The notes under the pieces were generated by a model, which saw only the letters and a program-made list of their open reading frames with translations, had not been told where the DNA came from and made no database searches. Below, one piece after another: positions 1,753 to 57,319 of a stretch of DNA of 64,000 nucleotides. The position numbers were made by a program, and so were the translations under genes. Source of the DNA: an uncultured Actinomycetes bacterium (GTDB lineage: Bacteria; Actinomycetota; Thermoleophilia; UBA2241). The stretch lies in assembly GCA_963764225.1 (NCBI GenBank), contig CAVXRL010000008.1, positions 255,304 to 319,303 of the forward strand, written 5' to 3'. The stretch's first letter is position 1, and every line of letters starts with the position of its first letter.

Positions 1753-2699
1753 CGCTGCCCTCCGGCCCAGCGCGTGGGCGGTGGAGTCTCGTGCGGGCCG
1801 GCCTGGCCGGCTGCGCCGGCTTCTCCGGCCCCGAGCAGCGTCTGGAGCGTCTCCACCTGTTCGTCGTCGAGCCGCGGCGCGGCCAGCGCGAGCGCCTCGA
1901 GGCTCAGCGCGCGGTACGTCCCGGCGAGGCGCGGGCTCTCGCGGTCGAGCAGCCGGAGGTGCGCGCGCACCGTGCCGATGTCTGCGCGGGCGACGGGCCC
2001 GGTGAGCGCGAACGCCGGCTCGCCGGTCCGCAGCAGGTTCTCCAGCGTCGTCCGGAGCAGCACGCCCAGGTGGTCCAGCCCGCGGGAATCGCCACTGGCC
2101 TCGTCCATCAGGCGCTTGGCCTCGCTCTCGAGCGCGACCAGGAGGTTGCAGCCCACCACGGCCGCGAGGTGGTACAGCGTCTTGTGCTCGTCGGGCAGAG
2201 GGAAGGGCCGCATGCCCAGGCGGACGGCCAACTCCTCGCCGAGCTGCAGGTCGCGCTCCTCCAGCGCCGTGACGGCGCAGGGCGTGTCGCGCAGCAGCTC
2301 CGCGCTGGGCTCGCCGGCGAACGTCTGCAGGGGGTGCAGGCTCAGCACGCGCACGCCCTGCTCGTACAGCGGTTTGAGCAGGTGCACCGAGCCCAGCCCG
2401 CTGGAGTGGATGGCGAGCGGCTGCGGCGCGCCGGGGCGGCGCGTGGCCGGCAGCGCTTCGGCCAGCCGGCCGGCCACCGTGGAGATCTCGTCGTCGGGCA
2501 CCGCCAGCCACCAGGCGTCGGCCTCGAGCGCGGCGTCGCGCACGCGCACGTGCGGGATCGCGTCGAAGAGGCTGGTGTCGTCGTCCCCGTGCACGGCCAC
2601 GGCGGTGACGGTGAGCTCGGCCTCCTGCAGGCCGGCGAGTACGGCCGATCCCAGACGTCCGGGACCGACAACGCAGAAGCGATGCGCGTCGATGGTCAA
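1749..2699 (-). CDS. Rossmann-fold / DUF2520 domain protein (Rv3603c-like; putative pantoate-pathway oxidoreductase)
   Basis: RFCVVGPGRLGSAV dinucleotide-binding motif. Gene sits immediately upstream of panC as in mycobacteria. TTG start at 2699 chosen because GGAGAGGTCGGAGG lies 4-8 nt upstream; ATG at 2771 is an alternative. Stop overlaps the panC GTG (GTGA). Confidence 0.55.
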   Translation of the reverse strand: MTIDAHRFCVVGPGRLGSAVLAGLQEAELTVTAVAVHGDDDTSLFDAIPHVRVRDAALEADAWWLAVPDDEISTVAGRLAEALPATRRPGAPQPLAIHSSGLGSVHLLKPLYEQGVRVLSLHPLQTFAGEPSAELLRDTPCAVTALEERDLQLGEELAVRLGMRPFPLPDEHKTLYHLAAVVGCNLLVALESEAKRLMDEASGDSRGLDHLGVLLRTTLENLLRTGEPAFALTGPVARADIGTVRAHLRLLDRESPRLAGTYRALSLEALALAAPRLDDEQVETLQTLLGAGEAGAAGQAGPHETPPPTRWAGGQR

Positions 2700-2940
2700 G
2701 CCTCCGACCTCTCCGGCTGCGGTCCGCCCGGTGGGGGAGGTACCGCGCCTGCCGTAAGACCTGTGCAGCACAGGCGGTGTCCCGGTCGCCTGCCGAGGCT
2801 CGGCGCCGGGCCATCGATCAAGCGTACGGTCTCACGCGCGCCTGGTCAATCAAGGCGACGTTTGCACAGCGACCTCCGGCGCCCCGCGCGCCGCGCTCTC
2901 CGAGGCTGGCCTCCCCGCCGCTGTGGGGTACACTACCGCC

Positions 2941-3159
2941 ATGCCGATCTACGAATTCTGCTGCAACGAGTGCGGTACCGCGTTCGAAGAGCTCGTCCGC
3001 ACCGGCACCAGGCCCGCGTGCCCGCAGTGCCGGTCGGCCGACGTCTGCCGGCTGCTGTCCACGTTCGCCGTCCACTCCTCGAGTCTCGACATCGGCGGCA
3101 AGGGAGCCAAGAAGAGCTGCTCCACTTGCGCCACCGGCTCCTGTGGCACCTGCCACTGA
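2941..3159 (+). CDS. FmdB-family zinc-ribbon protein
   Basis: MPIYEFCCNECGTAFEEL...CPQCRS...SCSTCATGSCGTCH, with CxxC...CxxC and a Cys-rich tail. Confidence 0.65.
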   Translation: MPIYEFCCNECGTAFEELVRTGTRPACPQCRSADVCRLLSTFAVHSSSLDIGGKGAKKSCSTCATGSCGTCH

Positions 3160-4126
3160 CGACGTCATCGCCGCACTCGACGCCCTCCGCGAGGAAGTCG
3201 AGTGCTGCTCCGGCTGCGTGCTCGGCTCCACGCGCACCAAGGCCGTGTTCGGCGAGGGAGACCCCGGCGCCGACCTGATGTTCGTCGGCGAGGCGCCCGG
3301 CTACCACGAGGACCAGCAGGGCCGGCCGTTCGTCGGCCAGGCCGGCAAGCTGCTCGAGCAGCTGCTCGCGTCCATCGGCATGACGCGCGAGCAGGTCTAC
3401 ATCGCCAACGTCCTCAAGAGCCGCCCGCCCAACAACCGCGACCCGCGGCCGGAGGAGATCGAGGCCTGCCGGCCGTACCTGTTCCGCCAGATCGAGATCA
3501 TCAGGCCCAAGGTCATCTGTACGCTGGGCAACTTCGCGACCAAGCTGCTGACCGGCGACCCCACCGGCATCACCAAGGTGCACGGACGTCCCAGGGCCAC
3601 CGAGATCGCCGGGCACGTGCTCTACCTGTATCCGATCTTCCACCCCGCCGCGGCGCTCTACACGCCGGCCATGCTGACGACGCTCAAAGAAGACTTCTCG
3701 AGGCTGCCCCGGTTGCTGGCGCAGCCGGCCCCCGAGCGGGGCGAAGAGGCGGCCGAGGCGCCGGCCGCGGAGCGACCGGCCTGGCGGCCGCCCGACGACC
3801 TGCGGCGCGACGCGGCGCCGGCCGCCGCGGGGGAACCGGCTCCTCAGCCTGCCCCCGGACCCACGCTCGAGGACAGGGCGCGCGCGGCGCTCGACGCGAC
3901 GCCGATCGACGAAGACCCTCCTGGGGGCCTGCAAGGCGCCCCGGCGCCCGAAGCCGGTCCCGGGGCGCCCGAGCCCGAAGCCGCGCAGCCGGAGGCCGAG
4001 CCTGAGCGGCCCGAGCCCGCGCCCGCCACCGAGTCCCAACGCGCGCCGGTCGCCGCGCCGGCCCCCGAGTCCCCACGCGCGCCGGCCGCCCCGCCGGCCG
4101 AACCGGAGCAGCTCGGCCTCTTCTGA
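3143..4126 (+). CDS. uracil-DNA glycosylase, family 4 (Fe-S type), with a ~110-aa Pro/Ala/Glu-rich C-terminal extension ending in QLGLF
   Basis: ECCSGCVLGSTRTKAVFGEGDPGADLMFVGEAPGYHEDQQGRPFVGQAGKLL...VYIANVLKSRPPNNRDP...EACRPYL family-4 UDG motifs. In-frame GTG at 3143 is the first start after an upstream stop and overlaps the FmdB 3' end by 17 nt. The tail is low complexity. Confidence 0.7.
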   Translation: MAPATDDVIAALDALREEVECCSGCVLGSTRTKAVFGEGDPGADLMFVGEAPGYHEDQQGRPFVGQAGKLLEQLLASIGMTREQVYIANVLKSRPPNNRDPRPEEIEACRPYLFRQIEIIRPKVICTLGNFATKLLTGDPTGITKVHGRPRATEIAGHVLYLYPIFHPAAALYTPAMLTTLKEDFSRLPRLLAQPAPERGEEAAEAPAAERPAWRPPDDLRRDAAPAAAGEPAPQPAPGPTLEDRARAALDATPIDEDPPGGLQGAPAPEAGPGAPEPEAAQPEAEPERPEPAPATESQRAPVAAPAPESPRAPAAPPAEPEQLGLF

Positions 4127-4127
4127 G

Positions 4128-4640
4128 ATGGTCGCGCTCACTCTCGCCTCGCCGGCCCAGACGCGGAAACTCGCGCGTGTGCTGGCCTCCCAGCTGCGTC
4201 CTCCCATGCTGCTGACCGTCGAGGGCGACCTGGGCACGGGCAAGACGACGCTCGTGCGCGAGGTGCTGCGCGCCCGCGGAGTGCGGGGAGCGATCACCAG
4301 CCCGTCGTTCACGCTCGCGCAGAGCTACCACGGGCGTGAGGGAGAGCAGCTGCACCACCTCGACCTGTACCGGCTGAGCCGCGGGGCGGACGCCGAGCTG
4401 TTCGCGTGGGACGACTACCTCGGCCCGGACGCGGTGACGTTCGTCGAGTGGCCGGCGGCCGGCAGCGAGGCGCTCCCTGCGCCGGACGTGCGCGTCGAGC
4501 TGGAGCACCGGACGCCGCGCAGCCGCGCCGCGCGCCTCTCCGGGCCTGATGCACTGGAGGCGGCGGTCGCCGCCGGCGCCGCCGCGGCAGGCATCGCCGT
4601 CACGGCCGCGGAGCCGGGCGCCGGGAGCGCGGGCGGATGA
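4128..4640 (+). CDS. tsaE: tRNA threonylcarbamoyladenosine biosynthesis protein TsaE
   Basis: GDLGTGKTTLVR P-loop, SPSFTL and DLYRL motifs. Confidence 0.85.
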   Translation: MVALTLASPAQTRKLARVLASQLRPPMLLTVEGDLGTGKTTLVREVLRARGVRGAITSPSFTLAQSYHGREGEQLHHLDLYRLSRGADAELFAWDDYLGPDAVTFVEWPAAGSEALPAPDVRVELEHRTPRSRAARLSGPDALEAAVAAGAAAAGIAVTAAEPGAGSAGG

Positions 4641-5359
4641 TCCTCGCGCTCGAGACGGCGACGACGGCGTGCTCGGCGGCGCTGTGCGCCGCGGACGGCT
4701 CGGTCGTCGCGCAGCGCGTCGCCCTCGACGGCCCCGCGCACTCGCGGCTCCTGCTGCCGTTCGTGCGCGAGGTGCTCGAGGAGGCCGGCGCCGGCTGGGA
4801 GGCCGTGGAGACGATCGCGGTCGGCCTCGGCCCCGGCGCCTTCACCGGGCTGCGCATCGGCGTCGCCACCGCGCGGGCGCTCGCGCAGGCGGACGGCGCA
4901 GCCGGCCTGGCCGGCGTGCCGACGCTCGCTGCCGTGGCGCTCGCGCTCACGGAGGCGCCGCAGGCGGCAGGCCGCAGGCTCGTGCCGCTCATCGACGGCC
5001 GCCGCCGTGAGGTGTTCGCGGCCGTCTTCCGGCACGACGGCGGGGTGCTCCGCCAGGTCGAGGACGTCGCCGTCGTGCGCGCCGACGACCTCGGCGCCTG
5101 GCTGGCCGCGCGCGGCGACGTGCTGACCGGCGGCGACGGCGCCGTGCTGTACGACGATCTGCTCCCGGCGTCGGCGCGGCGCGACGGCGACGTCGTCGCG
5201 CCGACGGCGGCGATGGTCGGCCGGGCGGTCGCCTGCGGCGCGCCCGGCCTCGTCCACGGCCCCGACGCCGTGCTGCCCCTCTACGGCCGCGCGCCCGACG
5301 CGCAGCCCCGCGCGGCCAGGTCCGACCCCTCATCCGCGACCGCGGAAGGTGCGGGATGA
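4637..5359 (+). CDS. tsaB: tRNA threonylcarbamoyladenosine biosynthesis protein TsaB
   Basis: MILALETATTACSAAL N-terminus (YeaZ family). ATGA overlap with tsaE. Confidence 0.8.
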   Translation: MILALETATTACSAALCAADGSVVAQRVALDGPAHSRLLLPFVREVLEEAGAGWEAVETIAVGLGPGAFTGLRIGVATARALAQADGAAGLAGVPTLAAVALALTEAPQAAGRRLVPLIDGRRREVFAAVFRHDGGVLRQVEDVAVVRADDLGAWLAARGDVLTGGDGAVLYDDLLPASARRDGDVVAPTAAMVGRAVACGAPGLVHGPDAVLPLYGRAPDAQPRAARSDPSSATAEGAG

Positions 5360-5844
5360 ACCTCGAGCTGGTGCCCGACAGGCCGGTGCACGAGCGCGTC
5401 ATCCGGCCCATGCACTTCACCGACCTCGAGGCGGTCGCCGCACTCGAGGCGCGCAGCTTCACCCTGCCGTGGTCGCTCGCCATCTTCAACGGCCAGCTCG
5501 CGCGCGACACCGGCATCTGTCTGGTCTGCGAGGACGACGGACGGGTCGTCGGCTACCTCATCGCCGACATGTTCGTCGACGTCTGGCACCTCATGAACCT
5601 CTGCGTGGCGGAGGAGGCGCGCCGCGAGCACATCGCTTCGGCCCTGCTCGAGGCCTACTTCGAGATCACGGAGCGCAGGGGGCACCGGGGGCACACCCTC
5701 GAGGTGCGCGTCTCCAACGCCCCGGCCATCGAGCTGTACCGCAGCTTCGGGTTCGTCTCCACCGGCGTCCGCCCCGGCTACTACAGTGACGACCGCGAGG
5801 ATGCCGTCATCATGTGGAAGGACTGGGAAGGGGACTCGGCGTGA
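5356..5844 (+). CDS. rimI: ribosomal-protein-alanine N-acetyltransferase
   Basis: GNAT fold with the RimI-like tail ELYRSFGF. Position between tsaB and tsaD is conserved. ATGA overlap. Confidence 0.8.
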   Translation: MNLELVPDRPVHERVIRPMHFTDLEAVAALEARSFTLPWSLAIFNGQLARDTGICLVCEDDGRVVGYLIADMFVDVWHLMNLCVAEEARREHIASALLEAYFEITERRGHRGHTLEVRVSNAPAIELYRSFGFVSTGVRPGYYSDDREDAVIMWKDWEGDSA

Positions 5845-6929
5845 ACCGCAGCCCCGCCGGCGAGCCGGGCGCCGCGGGCTCACCGCTCAGCAGCGGCGGA
5901 CCCATCCTCGCCCTCGAGACCTCCTGCGACGACACGAGCGCGGCGGTCGTGCGCGGGCGTGAGGTCCTCTCCTCGATCGTCTCGTCGCAGAACGAGCTGC
6001 ACGCGCAGTTCGGCGGCGTGGTGCCGGAGGTGGCCTCGCGCCGCCACACGGAGCTCGCCAACGAGGTGGTCGCCGAGGCGATGAGCCGGGCCGGAGTGAG
6101 CTGGGGCGACCTCAGCGCCGTGGCCGTCACGCAGGGCCCGGGCCTCATCGGGGCGCTGCTGGTCGGGCTGGCGACGGCCAAGTCGCTGGCCTACCGGCGC
6201 GGGCTGCCGCTGATCCCGGTCAACCACCTGCAGGGGCACATCGCCGCCAACTACGCGCTCGGCGTCGAGGCGCCGTTCATCTGCCTGGTCGCCAGCGGCG
6301 GGCACACGCTGCTCGCCGTGGTGGAGGAGGGCGTCCGGTACCGCGTCGCCGCCAAGACCATGGACGACGCCGCCGGTGAGGCGTTCGACAAGGGCGCCCG
6401 GCTGCTGGGCCTCGGCTACCCGGGCGGCAAGGAGCTCGACCAGCTGGCGGCGCGCGGCGACGCGGGCTTCGCCCGGTTCCCGCGCGCCGTGCCCCAGGGC
6501 CGCGGCTTCAGCTTCAGCGGCCTCAAGACGGCGCTGCTCTACGACCTCAGGGACCGCGACGAGGCGGAGGTCGAGGCGCGCCGCGCCGACATCGCCGCCT
6601 CGTACCAGGCGGCCATCGTGCGGCAGCTGGTCGAGAAGACCGTGGCGGGAGCGCGGCGCGAGGGCCTGCGCAGGGTCGCCGTCGCCGGCGGCGTCGCCGC
6701 CAACTCCGGCCTGCGCCGCGCCCTGACGGAGGCCTGTGAGGCCGAGGGCCTGCAGCTCTCGCTGCCGCCGCTCAGCCTCTGCACCGACAACGCCGGCATG
6801 GTCGGCCTGGCGGCCGGCTTCCTGCCGGCGCTCCCGTGCCCCGACTACCTGGGCCTGGACGCGTTCGCCAGCGACGCCGAGGCCAAGGCCGCACGCCCGC
6901 CGCGCAAGCGCCCGCCGCGCCGCGACTGA
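5841..6929 (+). CDS. tsaD: tRNA N6-adenosine threonylcarbamoyltransferase TsaD
   Basis: ILALETSCDDTSAAVV plus the HLxGH metal site (Kae1/Gcp family). GTG at 5841 overlaps the rimI stop (GTGA); an in-frame ATG at 5814 is an alternative. Confidence 0.85.
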   Translation: MNRSPAGEPGAAGSPLSSGGPILALETSCDDTSAAVVRGREVLSSIVSSQNELHAQFGGVVPEVASRRHTELANEVVAEAMSRAGVSWGDLSAVAVTQGPGLIGALLVGLATAKSLAYRRGLPLIPVNHLQGHIAANYALGVEAPFICLVASGGHTLLAVVEEGVRYRVAAKTMDDAAGEAFDKGARLLGLGYPGGKELDQLAARGDAGFARFPRAVPQGRGFSFSGLKTALLYDLRDRDEAEVEARRADIAASYQAAIVRQLVEKTVAGARREGLRRVAVAGGVAANSGLRRALTEACEAEGLQLSLPPLSLCTDNAGMVGLAAGFLPALPCPDYLGLDAFASDAEAKAARPPRKRPPRRD

Positions 6930-7034
6930 CTCTCGCGGCGGCCCGGCCCGCCGCAGGTGTCCGTCCGAACACGCCGGACACCACCGTGCAGCTCACACGG
7001 GGAACAGTACTGGAATGCTAGACTCGAGCGCAGC

Positions 7035-8738
7035 ATGACCCACCGTCCCGACTCCGTCTTTCCTCCCGCGCCCCTCGGCGAGACTTCTCGCACAGCCGCC
7101 GACCTCTTCGTCGACTGTCTGGAGAACGAAGGCGTGGAGTTCGTGTTCGGCATCCCCGGCGAGGAGACGCTGGACCTCAGCGAGGCCCTCGACCGCTCGC
7201 AGCTCATCACCTTCGTGCCCACCCGGCACGAGCAGGGCGCGGCGTTCATGGCCGACGCGTGGGGCCGTCTCACCGGCCGCCCGGGCGTCTGCCTCGCGAC
7301 CCTCGGCCCGGGCGCCAGCAACCTGGCCACCGGCGTCGGCGACGCGACGCTGGACAACGCGCCGCTGGTCGCGCTCACCGGGCAGACCGGGCTCGCCGGC
7401 ATGCACAAGGAGACCACGCACCAGTTCATCGACACCGTCGAGATGCTGCACCCCATGACCAAGTGGAACACGCGCATCCATCACCAGCGCATGGTGCCTG
7501 AGGCCGTGCGCAAGGCGTTCAGCATCGCCTCGGCCGAGAAGCCCGGCGCCACCCACCTGGAGTTGCCCGAGGACATCATGGCCGCGCCCGCGACCGGCGC
7601 GCCGCTGCCCAAGGGCCCGGAGCCGATGATGGAGGCCGACCCCGTCAGCCTGCTGCGCGCGGCGGAGGTCATCCAGGGCGCGCGCCGTCCGGTCATCCTC
7701 GCCGGCAACGGTGTCGCGCGCCAGGAGGCCTCCCCGGCGCTGCGCGCGTTCGTCGAGCAGACCGGCCTCCACGTCATCACCACGTTCATGGGCAAGGGCG
7801 TGGTGGACGCCTCCGACCCCCACTTCCTGTTCACCGCCGGGCTGCGGCGCCAGGACTACCCGCAAGGCCTTCTGGGCCGCGCCGACCTCGTCATCGCCAT
7901 CGGCTACGACATGATCGAGTGGCCGCCCTCCGCCTGGAACCCGGAGGGGCGGCAGCGCATCCTCTGCATCGACACCGTGCCCCCCGAGATCGACGCCCAG
8001 TTCATCCCCGAGGTGGAGCTCATCGGCGACCTCTCGCGGATCCTCTTCCAGCTCACCGGCCTCCTGGAGGGCAAGGAGGTGGCGAGCCTGGAGACGCGGC
8101 CCTACCGCAGGGCGTTCCGCCGCGTGCTCGACGCCGGCACGGACGAGGACTTCCCCATCAAGCCGCAGCGCGTGCTGCACGACCTGCGCGAGTTGATGTC
8201 GCCCGACGACGTCCTGGTGAGCGACGTGGGCGCGCACAAGCTCTGGGTGGCGCGCTTCTGGGAGGCGCGCGAGCCCAACACCGTGCTGATCAGCAACGGG
8301 TTCGCCGCCATGGGCTTCGGGCTGCCGGCGGCGATCGCCGCGGCGCTGGCTCGTCGCGGCCGCAGCAAGGTCGTGTGCATCACCGGCGACGGCGGCTTCC
8401 TCATGAACGTGCAGGAGCTGGAGACGGCTCGCCGCCTCGGCCTGCCGTTCGTCATCGTCGTGTGGAGCGACGGCGGCTACGGCCTCATCGAGATGCACCA
8501 GCGGCGCAAGTTCGGGCGCATCGCCGGCACGCGCTTCGACAACCCCGACCTCGTCACCCTGGCCCGTTCGTTCGGCGTGGAGGGACTCCGCGCCGAGAAG
8601 GCGGGCGACGTCAAACCCCTCCTCGCCAGAGCCCTCCGACATCCCGGCCCCGTTGTAGTGGACGTCCCGATAGATTACGGCGAGAACGACAAGCTGGCGG
8701 TCGACCTCTGGCAACTTGCCCCCGAAGCGCTGTCGTAG
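7035..8738 (+). CDS. acetolactate synthase-like thiamine-diphosphate enzyme (AlsS/IlvB superfamily)
   Basis: FGIPGEE, HEQGAAFMADAWGR and LGPGASNL motifs, plus a GDGGFLMN TPP-binding motif. Start at ATG 7035 is uncertain; GTG 6957 is an alternative. Confidence 0.7.
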   Translation: MTHRPDSVFPPAPLGETSRTAADLFVDCLENEGVEFVFGIPGEETLDLSEALDRSQLITFVPTRHEQGAAFMADAWGRLTGRPGVCLATLGPGASNLATGVGDATLDNAPLVALTGQTGLAGMHKETTHQFIDTVEMLHPMTKWNTRIHHQRMVPEAVRKAFSIASAEKPGATHLELPEDIMAAPATGAPLPKGPEPMMEADPVSLLRAAEVIQGARRPVILAGNGVARQEASPALRAFVEQTGLHVITTFMGKGVVDASDPHFLFTAGLRRQDYPQGLLGRADLVIAIGYDMIEWPPSAWNPEGRQRILCIDTVPPEIDAQFIPEVELIGDLSRILFQLTGLLEGKEVASLETRPYRRAFRRVLDAGTDEDFPIKPQRVLHDLRELMSPDDVLVSDVGAHKLWVARFWEAREPNTVLISNGFAAMGFGLPAAIAAALARRGRSKVVCITGDGGFLMNVQELETARRLGLPFVIVVWSDGGYGLIEMHQRRKFGRIAGTRFDNPDLVTLARSFGVEGLRAEKAGDVKPLLARALRHPGPVVVDVPIDYGENDKLAVDLWQLAPEALS

Positions 8739-14833: not shown

Positions 14834-16277
14834 GTGGAGACGTGCAAGATCCTGATCGGCGGCGACTGGGTAGCGGCAAGCGACCACGCCACCTTCGAGA
14901 CGAGGTCCCCGGCCGACCCGGCTGAAGTCCTCGCGGTGTTCCCGTCGGCGACCGCCGCCGACGCGGCGCAGGCGGCCGCCGCCGCCGCCGAGGCGTTCCC
15001 GGCCTGGCGGGCGACGCCGGCGCCGGCCCGCGGCGCCATCCTCTTCAAGGCGGCCGAACTGCTCACCGAGCGCCTGGACGAGGTCGCGCGCACGCTCACG
15101 CGGGAGGAGGGCAAGACGCTCGCCGAGGCCACCGGCGAGGTGCTCCGCGCGCGCGACATCCTCCGGTACTTCGCCGGCGAGGGCTGGCGGATGGGCGGCG
15201 ACGTCCTGCCGCCCAACGCGCCGGACGCGATGCTCTTCAGCCGCCGCGAGCCGCTCGGAGTGGTCGCCGCCATCACCCCGTGGAACTTCCCGATCGCCAT
15301 CCCGGCCTGGAAGCTGGCTCCGGCGCTCGTCTACGGCAACACCGTGGTCTTCAAGCCCGCATCGGACACGCCGCTCACCGCCCTTCGCCTGGTCGAGTGC
15401 CTCGTGGAGGCGGGCCTGCCCGACGGGGTGCTCAACTTCGTCACCGGCTCGGGAGCGGTCGTGGGAGGCGGCGTTCGCCGGCGATCCCGTGGTGCAGGGC
15501 CTCACCTTCACCGGGTCACGAGCCACCGGCTCGGACATCTACCCGCGCGCGGCCGGCCACGCCGCGCGCGTGCAGCTCGAGATGGGCGGCAAGAACCCCA
15601 CGATCGTCCTCGACGACGCCGACGTCGGCCTGGCCGTCAAGCTGGCCGTCCAGGGCGGCTTCGCGCTCACCGGCCAGAGTTGCACCGCCACCAGCCGCGT
15701 GATCGTCGAGGAGGGCATCGCCGACCGCTTCGCCGCCGCGCTGGCCGAGGCCGCCAACGCCCTCAACGTGGGCGACGGCCTCGACCAGGGGGTGCAGATG
15801 GGCCCCGCCGTGAGCGCGGCCCAGCTGGCCACCGACCTGGACTACGTGCGCGTCGGCGAGGAGGAGGGCGCGGACCTGCTGGCCGGAGGCGCCCGGGCCG
15901 GCGAGCGCGGCCACTACCTGCGCCCCACGGTGTTCGACGGCGTAGAGGTGCACAGCCGGCTCGCGCAGGAGGAGATCTTCGGGCCGCTGATCGGGATCAT
16001 CCGCGCCGCCGACGTCGACGACGCGATCTTCAAGGCCAACGCCGTCGGCTACGGGCTCGCGGCGAGCGTCGTGACCAACGACCTGCGCCGCGCGCTCACG
16101 TTCGTCGACCGTATCGAGGCCGGCGTCGTCAAGGTCAACGAGCCGACCACGGGCCTCGCGCTGCAGGCGCCCTTCGGCGGCTTCAAGCAGTCGAGCGCCA
16201 ACACCTTCAAGGAGCAGGGCCCGTCCGCGGTCGACTTCTACACGCGCACCAAGACGGTCTACATCAGCTACGGTTGA
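14834..16277 (+). pseudogene. NAD(P)-dependent aldehyde dehydrogenase, interrupted by a -1 frameshift near 15465 (G-run)
   Basis: N-terminal part reads in the frame of ORF 14834 (…ITPWNFP…VLNFVTGSGAVVG). C-terminal part reads in the frame of ORF 15489 (EAAFAGDPVVQGLTFTGS…EMGGKNP…SCTATSR…EEIFGPL). The two frames meet at gtgggaggcg. Confidence 0.7.
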
Positions 16278-53427: not shown

Positions 53428-53699
53428 CCGAGACGGGCTGGTCACGCCTGCAGACGGGTGCCCGTTGCCCGTCCTGACCACGCGATATCCTCGTCGGCGT
53501 GTTCCAGTTGCTAAAGGGGAGTACGATGAAGCTGGCGACCGTGTTGAGTGAAGGGGTACAGGTCGCCGGACGCGGGCAACGTTCGTGACGGAGAGTCGCC
53601 GGCCAGGACCAAGGGTCAAGGCGCGGCGACGATAGTCGTTCCGTCATCCCCTTCACACGTGTGTGGGTTCCGGGCTGAGAGACCCGAGGAGGGAAGAGG

Positions 53700-55472
53700 A
53701 TGAGACGAGCACGGGGGGATCGCGGGTTCACGCTCGTTGAACTGCTCATCACCATAGTGCTGGCGGGCATTGTCTTCGCTGCGTTGGTGCCAGTGTTTGT
53801 CTCGGCGTCGCAGCAGGGGAGCACGGATCGCGCGCGCATCATCGCCATCAACACGGCGCAGAGTGCAGTCGAACGCTTGCGTGACCTTCCTTATGACGAT
53901 CTGTACGACACCCATTGGTCCGACCCCACGACAAGGGAGACCGTGCTCGGGCAGACTCTCGAGTGGAAGGGGTCGACCAGCGACCTGACCGTCGATGTTG
54001 AGCCGTATCCTCTGGGCAGCCAGAAGGGGGCTGAAAGATACCTTGTTGCCTCCGTCAAGGCCTCTTGGACCGGCCCTGGGGACCAGTCACACGAAGTTGT
54101 GATGAAGACGGCTATCTACAGGGAGGGTCTGGGAACGGAGACTCTCGTCCTGTACGTGACTCCTCTGACGGGTGGTGTAATCAGGCAGTCGACGGCGATG
54201 GTAACCGGCCGTCTCGGTGGTGTCGATGCCGCCAAGACCGAGAGCATCATCTTCACCGTGTACGCCAACAATGGGACCGTCATCGACAACTGGACCGTGA
54301 CTTCGGCAGAAGCGACCGTTCGCGCTGACGGCTATACGTACTACGAAGACGAGTGGGACGCCACCGCGTTGGAGGATGGCCGGTATTCCTTCGTCGCCAA
54401 GACTGTCCCGATGCACATGGACCCACTACCCCCGTCGGAATGGGCTCGCAAGGAGTACATCCTCGACCGTGAACCACCAAGCGACCAGGTCGTCGATACC
54501 TGTCACTACGGCTTCCAGATGTCGAGTTCCGAGACGGAACCCGAGCCCGAGCCCACGCCCTTCGTCTATCTCGCCTGGCATTCTGAAACGAGTCAGAGCG
54601 ACATTGATCACTTCGAAATTTCTCGTACGGGAGTAGCGGCTGGCGGCACCGCGCTGGCTCCGCTCCTCATCAACGTGCCGAACTGGAGCACCGAATACGT
54701 GGATCGCGATGTGATCGAGGGCGCAACGTACACCTACGCGATCCGTGGATGGGACACGCAGGACCAGCACGGGGAGTGGTCTCCAGAGCCTGGCACGGCC
54801 ATCGTTACAGCTTCGGACGCCGCCATCACTCCCGCCCCGCCCGAATCTCCCATCACCTACACAGTGAATGGACGCAGTGTCACCGTTATTTGGCAGCCCT
54901 CCACCACACCCGAACTGATCGATCACTACCGTATCTATCGTCAAGGCGCGGACGGGACGAGGCTGTTGGTGACCACGGTGGAAGCGGACACCGTCTCGCC
55001 GGACGATGGACTGTTGCGGTACCCTGACCCATTCGTCGACTACGGTGCCACCTACACCTACTTCATCACGTCGGTGGTCCTACTTGGCGCTCCGCCGCAA
55101 TGGGAAAGCCTGTCGCTCAGCGGGGCACCCGTCCGCGTGCCTGAACCACCCAAGGTCGGCATGAGGGTCTCCGTCTCTGTCAAGGCGGGCGTGACTGCCC
55201 CCAAACTCGCCCGCCTCGTCATCCACGATCTTGTCAATGGCGACCTGATTCCGGCAAACCCATGGGACTATGCGTCGATCAACCCCAGCAGCAGCAACGA
55301 GAACCAGAACACCTGGGTGACCGGCGACATCCTTTACCCGGGCAGTTACCAGGTGATTGCAGTCTTCTACGATCAGAACAGGAATGTCATAGCCGAGTAC
55401 CTCTCCGACTCCATTGAGCTCACGCAGTCTGACACACCCGTCACCGTGCCCTATGACGGCCCCAATCGATGA
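53700..55472 (+). CDS. large prepilin-type (type IV pilin-like) protein with FN3-like repeats (minor pilin / pilus-tip adhesin candidate)
   Basis: N-terminal class-III signal MRRARGDRG|FTLVELLITIVLAGIVFAALVPV, then a ~540-aa Thr/Pro-rich domain with Y-x-Y-x-I FN3-like strands. GGAGGGAAGAGG RBS. Region GC is ~55-58%. Confidence 0.65.
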   Translation: MRRARGDRGFTLVELLITIVLAGIVFAALVPVFVSASQQGSTDRARIIAINTAQSAVERLRDLPYDDLYDTHWSDPTTRETVLGQTLEWKGSTSDLTVDVEPYPLGSQKGAERYLVASVKASWTGPGDQSHEVVMKTAIYREGLGTETLVLYVTPLTGGVIRQSTAMVTGRLGGVDAAKTESIIFTVYANNGTVIDNWTVTSAEATVRADGYTYYEDEWDATALEDGRYSFVAKTVPMHMDPLPPSEWARKEYILDREPPSDQVVDTCHYGFQMSSSETEPEPEPTPFVYLAWHSETSQSDIDHFEISRTGVAAGGTALAPLLINVPNWSTEYVDRDVIEGATYTYAIRGWDTQDQHGEWSPEPGTAIVTASDAAITPAPPESPITYTVNGRSVTVIWQPSTTPELIDHYRIYRQGADGTRLLVTTVEADTVSPDDGLLRYPDPFVDYGATYTYFITSVVLLGAPPQWESLSLSGAPVRVPEPPKVGMRVSVSVKAGVTAPKLARLVIHDLVNGDLIPANPWDYASINPSSSNENQNTWVTGDILYPGSYQVIAVFYDQNRNVIAEYLSDSIELTQSDTPVTVPYDGPNR

Positions 55473-55482
55473 GAAGGCAGCC

Positions 55483-56661
55483 ATGAAGCGCGCCGTTTCA
55501 GCTGAGGACATGCGGGTCGGTGGTTCGAGTTCCGGCAGCAGTCTGATCATGCTCATCGGCGTCGTGGCGGCGCTCGCCCTGCTTGCCGCGACGCTGGTCG
55601 CGGTGCTGGCGAATGCGCAGCATGCCACCTCCATGAACCGGGCTAAGACGAGCTCCTTCGACATTGCCGAGGCGGCCGTCGATGTGACGATGGAGAGGTT
55701 GTCGCAGCAGTGGCCGGACGACACCGCCCAGTGGACTCCGGCCACCTTTGCTACCATCGCCCCACAGTTCGCCACGACCTTCGGTGTGACTCCCAACGCG
55801 ACCAGCGGTGATGCCGTCTGGGTGCTCGTACGGGACGATGCGGGCGCGGACATAACCTCGGCTCCCGCCTACGATGAGAACGGCAACGGGTTCCTGTGGG
55901 TCGACGCTCAGGCGCGCGTGAACGACGCCTCATCCCGCATCCGGACAATGATCCAAGCCAAGTTCTACGAGATGAACCTACCGAAGGGCGTGGCCGTTTG
56001 TGCGGACGGCGACCTGCTCAGCAATGCTCCAGGTGGAACGACGTCGTCCGGCAAGAACAAGATCGGTGCCGGCGATGTCTCTGTCGGCGGCCAGCAACCT
56101 GTGTCCATCGCGATCTGGGGGTCCATCCAGAATCCTGAGGTGGCTTGGCCGTACGTCGATCAGAACCCGCCGTACAAGCCCCACGCTCAGGATCTCATCC
56201 CCCCCGACCTTATCGCCGACCTCAGGGCGATCGCCGAGAGCACGGGCAAGCTGTTCACCGGAGGCGCAATGCCCTCACGCGAAGACCTGGAGGGGCTTTG
56301 TGTGGTAGAGGCTGGCCCCGGCATCACGGTGCAACTGGGCCAGAACGGCAGGACGGAAGCCTTCAACAGCCCGACTAAGCCGGGAATTCTGCTCGTCCTC
56401 GGGGGAGCGGGTCTTAAGCTCGCCGGAAACACCGAGTACTACGGGGTGGTCTACACGGAGGGCGACATCGGCGTGGCGCAGGGAAACCCGATCATCTACG
56501 GAATGGTGGTTACGAAGGGCACCTTCGACATGGGTGGAGTGGCGCAGGTTATCTACCGTGAGGACTGTTTGGCGAACCTCAATCGTCAGTTTCAGACATC
56601 CACCCGTATCGTGCCGAACTACTGGCGTGAACTTACGCCGGTCGACTACTCGTTGCCATGA
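55483..56661 (+). CDS. PilX-like pilus assembly/minor pilin protein
   Basis: N-terminal hydrophobic segment (LIMLIGVVAALALLAATLVAV) followed by ...RAKTSSFDIAEAAVDVTMERL, which resembles the PilX_N pattern. ATG at 55513 is an alternative start. Confidence 0.5.
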   Translation: MKRAVSAEDMRVGGSSSGSSLIMLIGVVAALALLAATLVAVLANAQHATSMNRAKTSSFDIAEAAVDVTMERLSQQWPDDTAQWTPATFATIAPQFATTFGVTPNATSGDAVWVLVRDDAGADITSAPAYDENGNGFLWVDAQARVNDASSRIRTMIQAKFYEMNLPKGVAVCADGDLLSNAPGGTTSSGKNKIGAGDVSVGGQQPVSIAIWGSIQNPEVAWPYVDQNPPYKPHAQDLIPPDLIADLRAIAESTGKLFTGGAMPSREDLEGLCVVEAGPGITVQLGQNGRTEAFNSPTKPGILLVLGGAGLKLAGNTEYYGVVYTEGDIGVAQGNPIIYGMVVTKGTFDMGGVAQVIYREDCLANLNRQFQTSTRIVPNYWRELTPVDYSLP

Positions 56662-57287
56662 GCTTGCGCTTCCGTCATCGCGCGTCGGGGCTGACGCTCG
56701 TGGAACTGCTGGTGGTAATGACGATCGGCGTCATTGTTTCGGGGGCGATCCTGCTCACGTGGTCGTCGCTCACCCGCTCGTTCTCGTTTACTACGAAGAG
56801 TAGCGACTCGCAGGATTTCGCGCGCGACGCAGTGGCGCGCATGGGCAGAGAGATCCGCGACATGGAACCACTGGGAGCTGCATCCGCCATACTGCTGGCC
56901 GACAGTGACGAACTCGTCTTCACCACTACGTTCAACGAGGCCGGTAACGACACACCTCTCGTCGATCCGGTCCTAACAAGATACTGGTACTCGTGGGACG
57001 CGGACCGGCATGTAGGCGTCCTTCATCGCGAGCGGGGAGGGGTCTCCCGCGTACTTGTGGACAACGTTCTCAACACGAGGACGGGATCCGACGCTGACAT
57101 CTTCAAGTACACCTATGTTGACGCGGGGAGAAACCTGGTTACTGATGGTCAATCCCCCTCAGAGGTCGAGTACGACAGCATCTCCATGATTCGAATTGAC
57201 CTTTCAGTTGACTTGAATCCAGAGTCAGCCCCGCAGCCCATGACAGTCTCAACTCGGGTGCATCTTCGCAACCAGGGCCGGTACTAA
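56658..57287 (+). CDS. prepilin-type N-terminal cleavage/methylation protein (GspJ/PilW-like minor pseudopilin)
   Basis: MSLRFRHRASG|LTLVELLVVMTIGVIVSGAILL prepilin motif. ATGA overlap with the upstream gene. Confidence 0.6.
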   Translation: MSLRFRHRASGLTLVELLVVMTIGVIVSGAILLTWSSLTRSFSFTTKSSDSQDFARDAVARMGREIRDMEPLGAASAILLADSDELVFTTTFNEAGNDTPLVDPVLTRYWYSWDADRHVGVLHRERGGVSRVLVDNVLNTRTGSDADIFKYTYVDAGRNLVTDGQSPSEVEYDSISMIRIDLSVDLNPESAPQPMTVSTRVHLRNQGRY

Positions 57288-57319
57288 GGTCGTCAATTCC
57301 TCGCTGCTGATTCCGGGCG

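Follow-up and report, generated by a model that had tools for sequence, protein, structure and literature searches.

The 64-kb window analysed here (the whole 64,000-nucleotide stretch of contig CAVXRL010000008.1, from an uncultured bacterium of the Thermoleophilia) encodes a complete uracil-DNA glycosylase (UDG). Its reading frame opens inside the 3' end of an FmdB-family zinc-ribbon gene and is followed by tsaE and other tRNA-modification genes (Table 1). Our subject is this UDG, and above all the tail of about 130 amino acids (residues ~194-327) that follows its catalytic core and ends in the pentapeptide QLGLF, which resembles the motif through which bacterial proteins bind the beta sliding clamp, DnaN. 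An original prediction, made from the letters of this stretch and a list of its reading frames, had proposed that the gene encodes a family-4 UDG tethered to the replisome by such a tail. A protein identical to the window UDG is present in a public collection (P0001).

Table 1. Features of the UDG locus, in window coordinates.
Feature	Coordinates	Strand	Basis or remark
FmdB-family CxxC_CxxC zinc-ribbon gene (72 residues)	2941..3159	+	ATG to TGA; PF09723 and TIGR02605
Overlap of FmdB 3' end and UDG 5' end (17 nucleotides)	3143..3159	+	Read from sequence
UDG coding sequence, complete (327 residues and stop)	3143..4126	+	GTG to TGA; open reading frame and translation
UDG catalytic core (residues 1-195)	3143..3727	+	TIGR00758, PF03167, alignment, PDB/Foldseek matches
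Proximal tail segment (residues 196-222)	3728..3808	+	Conserved in the close clade
ERPAWRPP island (residues 210-217)	3770..3793	+	Within the proximal tail segment
Hypervariable acidic Pro/Ala/Glu-rich linker (residues 223-312)	3809..4078	+	Column identity mostly <50%, many indels
In-frame 36-nucleotide (12-residue) tandem duplication, 2.3 copies	4017..4099	+	Tandem Repeats Finder, 89% matches, score 131
Conserved C-terminal segment APAAPPAEPEQLGLF (residues 313-327)	4079..4123	+	Conservation ~60% rising to 100%
Clamp-motif-like pentapeptide QLGLF (residues 323-327)	4109..4123	+	TGA at 4124-4126 directly after
tsaE	4128..4640	+	PF02367 3.3e-33, TIGR00150, conserved synteny; begins 1 nucleotide past the UDG stop
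tsaB	4637..5359	+	Open reading frame list; synteny
rimI	5356..5844	+	Open reading frame list
tsaD	5814..6929	+	Open reading frame list

The catalytic core matches TIGR00758 over residues 13-193 with 217.2 bits, against a cutoff of 125.3, and PF03167 with an E-value of 2.5e-36 (125 bits, cutoff 24). Motif A (GEAPG, residues 49-53) and motif B (HPAAALY, residues 167-173) are invariant in 85 homologs; PMC10359453 defines these motifs for family 4 as GE(A/G)PG and HP(S/A)..., respectively. Equally invariant are Cys22, Cys25, Cys109, and Cys126, which have cysteine counterparts at the aligned positions of 4zbx, and the four would fit the [4Fe-4S] ligation of a family-4 UDG. The nearest solved structure is the family-4 UDG of Sulfolobus tokodaii (4zbx, E=9e-55, 50% identity), with Thermus UDGA and Thermotoga TM0511 as the next structural matches (42-43% identity for Thermus). 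Foldseek matched 4zby with an E-value of 3.8e-17, a target-normalised TM-score of 0.79, and 50% identity, and it matched 1ui1 with a TM-score of 0.79. An AlphaFold2 model built from the alignment of the 85 sequences gives the core predicted local distance difference test (pLDDT) values of mostly 83-97. All of this describes what appears to be an ordinary, catalytically intact family-4 UDG, with nothing to hint at inactivity, and the original assignment to that family stands on the score above the TIGR00758 cutoff, the two motifs, the four cysteines, and the S. tokodaii match. The protein is a close relative, not a member, of the archaeal type-4 UDG equivalog NF040953 (226.4 bits, under the cutoff of 250). 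UdgX, an enzyme of similar fold, was considered and rejected as an identity for it, since the match to TIGR03914 is weak (130.5 bits, below the cutoff of 189.95) and motif A reads GEAPG rather than GEQPG.

The composition of the tail is extreme. Its 134 residues include 35 Ala, 33 Pro, 19 Glu, 10 Arg, 9 Gly, and 7 Asp, so that Ala, Pro, and Glu together make up 65%; hydrophobic residues number only ten, and the tail carries a net charge of about -16. In the same AlphaFold2 model residues 201-327 have pLDDT values of 47-73, with 67-73 reached in parts, and the sole predicted secondary structure is one short helix at residues 242-251. The low pLDDT, the low-complexity sequence, and a hypervariable linker with indels all point to a tail that is intrinsically disordered, acidic, and rich in Pro, Ala, and Glu, in agreement with the disorder originally predicted. 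The earlier description of a tail made almost entirely of Pro, Ala, Glu, and Arg was likewise accurate, as were the peptides it quoted, although its length of about 110 residues was too low.

Conservation within the tail is confined to its two ends. In the proximal segment, R211, P212, A213, W214, P216, and P217 of the ERPAWRPP island are conserved at 91-98% in the 85-sequence alignment of the close clade. The island is missing from genome loci L002, L017, L019, and L022-L030, and these still keep FmdB where the flank is present and the terminal motif where the locus is complete. ERPAWRPP is a candidate second docking motif and is not a clamp motif. The linker that follows brings the tail to anything from 12 to 213 residues across relatives, and the tandem duplication in the window copy shows such a change of length with the reading frame kept. 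At the far end the alignment closes on the pattern APxxPPAEPEQLGLF, in which E322, Q323, L324, and F327 are invariant, L326 is conserved at 99%, and G325 at 95%; the 85 sequences had been picked for ending in the motif, so part of this invariance comes from selection.

A strongly acidic tail on a DNA-binding enzyme might act within the molecule, as a DNA-mimicking lid on the DNA-binding face that brings about auto-inhibition or faster product release, with the terminus anchored on the core and any contact with the clamp secondary or absent. The net charge, the conserved segment adjoining the core, and the intermediate pLDDT of parts of the tail would all suit a lid. The model, however, leaves the terminus undocked from the core, with pLDDT below 50 for residues 325-327; unconserved linkers ranging so widely in length fit a tether better than a specific lid; and relatives with short tails (17-residue linkers) are not notably acidic and keep the motif nonetheless. 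We consider an intramolecular role of this kind decidedly improbable.

The protein ends in PAEPEQLGLF directly before the stop codon, exactly as first described, and its frame is the only one with a clamp-motif-like ending among the 494 open reading frames of the window (stop to stop, at least 60 residues). One trivial explanation would be that a frameshift or a miscalled stop has run a normal 195-residue UDG on into sequence that is non-coding or belongs to another frame. Much of the tail region is open in all six frames, several public assemblies are frameshifted here, and the G+C content at codon positions 1, 2, and 3 of the tail (0.93, 0.70, and 0.86) does not discriminate: codons for Ala, Pro, Glu, and Gly make all three positions G+C-rich, so third-position G+C is no test of the frame. 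We therefore relied on a comparative, in-frame test. Among the 120 closest database homologs, 104 end in (E/Q)QL(G/D)(L/F)F; the commonest ending among the sixteen exceptions, PNRSSSASSR (six sequences), is what the window DNA itself encodes in its +2 frame. Thirty Thermoleophilia genome loci were compared as well. The motif is in frame in 23 of them, the contig end is reached in three, and the frame is shifted in four; EQLGLF-stop is thus encoded in 27 of 27 complete loci, in four of them after frameshift correction. In the four shifted loci EQLGLF-stop stands directly before tsaE; the shifts are assembly errors in a stretch made difficult by its high G+C. More than 100 independent assemblies with differing linkers reach the same eight terminal residues in frame, and the tail must on this account be real rather than borrowed from another frame; the 36-nucleotide period of the linker duplication, a multiple of three, agrees. 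An artefact of assembly or gene calling is, after this, hardly conceivable.

Public assemblies and gene calls are often frameshifted in the UDG tail, including loci L012, L014, L016, and L021 and proteins P0031, P0043, P0086, P0091, P0099, and P0113. Such calls yield spurious Arg/Ser-rich C-termini, while the true EQLGLF lies in another frame.

Hundreds of relatives keep a clamp-motif-like ending. Outside the Thermoleophilia, 14 of 15 genome loci whose motif B is of the HPAAAL type end in Q-x-x-[L/M/F]-F behind linkers of 17-96 residues. The endings are EQLGLF, KQLGLF, or QQLGLF in low-GC Actinomycetota; QQLSLF, KQLSLF, or EQLSFF in Anaerolineae; EQLSLF in Chloroflexales; and QQRLF or QPRMF in Dehalococcoidia. 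A search with the core alone added QLDLFG, QMDLFG, QLTLF, QLPLF, QMSLF, and QLSLFDL among its best 150 representatives at 50% identity. In a further search, seeded with one QLDLFG protein, all 120 Solirubrobacterales-type homologs listed end in [DE]Q[LM][DG][LFMI]F[GA], mostly DQLDLFG. A tail-less group served as a negative control, and the motif was found in none of its 35 genome loci; its members come from Acidobacteriota, Clostridia, and others, mostly have HPAYLLRNP as motif B, and include the characterised Thermus and Thermotoga enzymes. With all collections pooled, the motif occurs in 173 of 275 HPAAAL-type sequences versus 3 of 38 others; truncation or a frameshift of the metagenomic call affects many of the negatives.

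Position 3 of the motif varies among G, S, D, T, P, R, N, and K, and Glu or Asp stands just before the motif in 129 of the 163 non-redundant sequences that carry it. Positions 1, 2, 4, and 5 were set by the pattern with which endings were collected, so the constancy of these four is not independent evidence; the informative points are the variability of position 3, the acidic flank, and the counts obtained without selection. The original prediction had named orthologs lacking the tail or the motif as the observation that would speak against it, and a search of orthologs found the opposite. No part of the tail is better conserved than the motif, which is kept across phyla, in different codons, behind linkers of very different length, and in front of different downstream genes.

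In a set of loci from metagenome-assembled genomes (MAGs) of Clostridia (L057, L061-L063, L069, L071-L073, and L075-L079), the UDG is matched by tblastn over about 1.1-1.3 kb, although the frame-0 open reading frame has only about 185 residues. An inserted sequence, or a further UDG-like segment on the downstream side, possibly accounts for these split matches.

Conservation of the last codons could in principle serve the next gene instead of the protein. In 28 Thermoleophilia sequences (27 loci and the window), the last eight UDG codons and the junction with tsaE (GAGCAGCTCGGCCTCTTC-stop-ATG) are almost invariant, synonymous sites included, and the UDG stop abuts or nearly abuts the tsaE ATG (window 4100-4130), as might be expected of an RNA or DNA signal for coupled translation of tsaE. 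Between phyla, however, the motif is written with CAG or CAA, with CTC, TTA, TTG, or CTA, with GGC, GGG, or GGA, and with TTC or TTT; low-GC Actinomycetota, for example, use GAA CAA TTA GGA TTA TTT for the same peptide. Anaerolineae, Chloroflexales, and Dehalococcoidia moreover keep the motif with no tsaE downstream. Because the codons differ across phyla and the motif persists in front of other genes, selection must act on the peptide. A GGAG lies about 21-24 nucleotides before the tsaE ATG, which exceeds the typical Shine-Dalgarno spacing and is too far to act as one. We rejected the motif as a translation signal for tsaE, an explanation that the codon differences largely refute and that we now judge very improbable.

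What the peptide resembles is clear. QLGLF is, letter for letter, the clamp-binding motif of Escherichia coli Pol II (PMC3716654), and the Dalrymple consensus, as quoted in that paper, is QL[S/D]LF. The motif is defined as Q-aliphatic-x-[L/M]-[F/L] or a six-residue form; peptides of the QLxLF class have the highest affinity, with QLDLF the strongest and position 3 freely variable; flanking residues are usually acidic, and the carboxylate of a free C-terminus can take part in clamp contact (PMC11139829). The ending EPEQLGLF-COOH combines the motif, the acidic flank, and the free C-terminus. It stands at the extreme end of a tail of low pLDDT, directly preceded by EPE, and is conserved in orthologs of at least two phyla amid a diverging background. 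The original description of QLGLF as a motif of the beta-clamp type therefore holds. A PCNA-interacting peptide (PIP) box, whose canonical form is QxxhxxAA (PMC2770678), was rejected as a reading: QLGLF-stop has no counterpart of the aromatic pair at PIP positions 7 and 8, and the relatives are bacterial MAGs.

We conclude that the gene is likely to encode an intact family-4 UDG with a disordered acidic tether of about 130 residues that ends in a DnaN-binding motif, QLGLF-COOH, and that in bacteria of these lineages, as in archaea and humans, uracil repair is probably linked to replication. Several points weigh against this conclusion. The 85-sequence alignment is enriched for motif-bearing sequences, and it is the unselected counts that carry the argument. 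Within Thermoleophilia alone, constraint on the nucleotides and constraint on the peptide are inseparable. The QQRLF and QPRMF endings of Dehalococcoidia match the motif definition only loosely, and short linear motifs can be common to unrelated partners.

That last point leads to an alternative in which the likeness to a clamp motif is coincidental, and the terminal peptide docks the enzyme to, or marks it for degradation by, a partner other than DnaN, such as a protease adaptor, a protein that binds SSB tails, or the FmdB protein. The argument for clamp binding is drawn from sequence; an acidic stretch leading into a hydrophobic C-terminus is the general style of bacterial hub-binding tails, SSB with its ...DDDIPF being an example; and ERPAWRPP shows that the tail holds at least one element that is not for the clamp. 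On the other hand, the variants QLGLF, QLDLF(G), QLSLF, QLTLF, QMDLF, and QLDFF closely track the published degeneracy of the clamp motif, with a constant Gln, an aliphatic residue at position 2, a free position 3, Leu or Met at position 4, and Phe or Leu at position 5. The Ile-Pro-Phe ending of SSB appears in none of the variants, and FmdB is missing from the flanks of loci outside Thermoleophilia that keep the motif. Such a partner seems to us unlikely.

If the tether does bind DnaN, the terminal peptide would enter the hydrophobic cleft that domains II and III form in a beta clamp loaded on DNA, the site used by Pol II, Pol IV, and other clients. The flexible, DNA-repelling acidic linker would then let the glycosylase scan duplex DNA up to a few tens of nanometres away from the clamp. 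Uracil excision would be concentrated at replication forks and at clamps left on newly made DNA, directed at misincorporated dUMP and at deaminated cytosine, which would weigh heavily on a genome of 73% G+C, and the abasic-site product would be left near other clamp-bound repair enzymes. From the motif and its conservation we infer each of these steps: DnaN binding, replisome recruitment, and any gain in activity. More tentatively, we suggest that HPAAAL-type bacterial family-4 UDGs of Thermoleophilia, other Actinomycetota, and Chloroflexota may as a group be unrecognised clients of the beta clamp, one subfamily having gained a PCNA peptide in archaea and a clamp motif in bacteria, and that in the clade of the window the tail may be a two-site scaffold on which ERPAWRPP docks a further partner, perhaps an apurinic/apyrimidinic (AP) endonuclease, to assemble repair on the clamp. 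We give this composite proposal slightly less than even odds.

The start of the UDG is tied to the gene before it. The FmdB gene matches PF09723 (1.6e-12, 47.6 bits, cutoff 34.4) and TIGR02605 (51.2 bits, cutoff 31.3, with the alignment beginning at residue 1), scores that place it in both families. Its protein ends in SCGTCH, and the GTG of the UDG arises within its codons TGT-GGC, 17 nucleotides before its end, precisely where the start had been predicted. The claim that this is the only in-frame start needs qualification, as three in-frame candidates of the type ATG, GTG, or TTG exist, namely GTG 2777, GTG 3143, and GTG 3218. The first lies upstream of the FmdB gene and would have to cross it out of frame, and the last would cost the conserved N-terminal helix along with Cys22 and Cys25; GTG 3143 is therefore the only plausible start. 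Of 29 Thermoleophilia loci, 27 have the same 17-nucleotide overlap with a GTG start, made inside the terminal ...C-G/A-T-C-H codons of FmdB, and FmdB lies directly 5' of the UDG in every Thermoleophilia locus with an upstream flank (L001-L029). The bases upstream of the GTG are CTCCTCCT-like, and no Shine-Dalgarno sequence (GGAGG) precedes the UDG start across the Thermoleophilia loci compared. Translation of the UDG is probably coupled to that of FmdB through this conserved overlap. FmdB was not found in the flanks of motif-bearing UDG loci outside Thermoleophilia, so it must be unnecessary for the function of the tail, and we rejected it as an obligatory partner of the motif.

Downstream, the UDG heads an apparent tight operon with tsaE, tsaB, rimI, and tsaD. 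No terminator-like site was found within 2600-7200, and promoter, terminator, and Rfam scans returned nothing within the UDG-tsa operon. From this arrangement it seems that a DNA repair gene and genes for t6A tRNA modification are expressed in tight coupling, for no obvious functional reason. Adjacency of UDG, tsaE, and tsaB is seen also in low-GC Actinomycetota (L032, L034, L035, L038, and L042). Upstream of FmdB, a divergently oriented DUF2520/Rossmann gene is accompanied by a second divergent gene that, from its translation, is likely panC. This segment of the chromosome has about 73% G+C.

The rest of the window holds housekeeping genes (groEL, ftsH, folate genes, nadB/C, lysS, clpC, radA, and others). 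It contains no replication genes, and a phmmer search of its 494 open reading frames with the E. coli DnaN sequence found no match to dnaN. Two regions of the window lie apart from our main subject. An aldehyde dehydrogenase gene at 14834-16277 (+) is broken across two reading frames: the 14834-15538 frame covers positions 1-198 of Pfam Aldedh, and the 15489-16277 frame covers positions 206-461. The break is a frameshift near 15,480 that reflects either a pseudogene or a sequencing error. A stretch at 53500-57300 has a lower G+C content (~59-64%, versus ~72% elsewhere) and three + strand open reading frames (53700-55472, 55414-56661, and 56658-57287), two of which open with a prepilin-type N-terminal methylation motif; a pilin or pseudopilin island may have been acquired here.

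Reports linking a bacterial UDG to the beta clamp were sought, and none was found in the searchable literature, a provisional result given that most subscription journals lie outside such a search. A 2024 review of clamp partners makes no mention of glycosylase, uracil, or base excision (PMC11139829), and the passages searched in a 2022 review of the non-catalytic parts of DNA glycosylases describe no bacterial clamp-binding tail (PMC9266487). The enzyme and the clamp-motif mechanism are both known; their combination in bacteria appears to be undescribed, and widespread. That the well-studied Thermus and Thermotoga enzymes of family 4 are tail-less may explain how the feature went unnoticed. 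Clamp-coupled uracil repair is established in eukaryotes (UNG2-PCNA) and in archaea (family-4 UDG-PCNA). If the tail binds DnaN, at least two large bacterial phyla tie the first step of uracil base excision to the replisome, and the list of clamp clients grows, with more competition for the two binding pockets of the clamp. This would bear on models of switching between polymerases and repair enzymes and on antibiotics that target the clamp. With lengths that naturally run from 12 to more than 200 residues, these linkers are well suited to asking how tether length tunes an enzyme bound to the clamp.

Compared with known systems, the window UDG shares its catalytic domain, GEAPG motif, HPA-type motif B, four cysteines, and fold with the solved family-4 UDGs (S. 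tokodaii 4zbx/4zby; T. thermophilus UDGA, 1ui0; T. maritima TM0511, 1l9g/1vk2). Those enzymes have 192-205 residues and no long tail, whereas the window UDG adds the disordered residues that end in QLGLF. The archaeal analogy drawn in the original prediction is apt: PCNA binding is established for family-4 UDGs of archaea, and the window core falls in the HPAAAL subfamily, as the crenarchaeal UDG does. Sulfolobus solfataricus UDG1 binds PCNA3; the UDG of Pyrococcus furiosus binds PCNA through an internal peptide, AKTLF, at residues 152-156 (PMC1636371; PMC2770678). In both cases a short hydrophobic peptide ties excision to a clamp. In archaea the clamp is PCNA and the PIP box or PIP-like peptide lies inside or next to the fold; here the clamp would be the bacterial beta dimer, and its putative ligand, the QLxLF peptide, is carried on the end of a long disordered linker.

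Among bacterial clamp clients, E. coli Pol II (QLGLF), Pol IV (QLVLGL), and actinobacterial NucS/EndoMS carry a C-terminal clamp motif, as the window UDG does; its pentapeptide is that of Pol II, placed at the extreme C-terminus with an acidic flank and in a disordered context. The base-excision-repair enzymes Nei2, XthA, and LigA of Mycobacterium tuberculosis also bind the beta clamp (PMC9690074), so that recruitment of a repair enzyme by the clamp is not without precedent. The window UDG would differ from the known clients in its cargo, a uracil-DNA glycosylase, and in a linker that is unusually long in its clade. The human enzyme UNG2 is likewise a glycosylase tethered to a clamp, through a disordered tail with PCNA- and RPA-binding sites (PMC9266487). 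UNG2 belongs to family 1, however, and its tail is N-terminal and uses a PIP box to reach the eukaryotic clamp, whereas the tail described here is C-terminal, belongs to a family-4 enzyme, and would reach the bacterial one.

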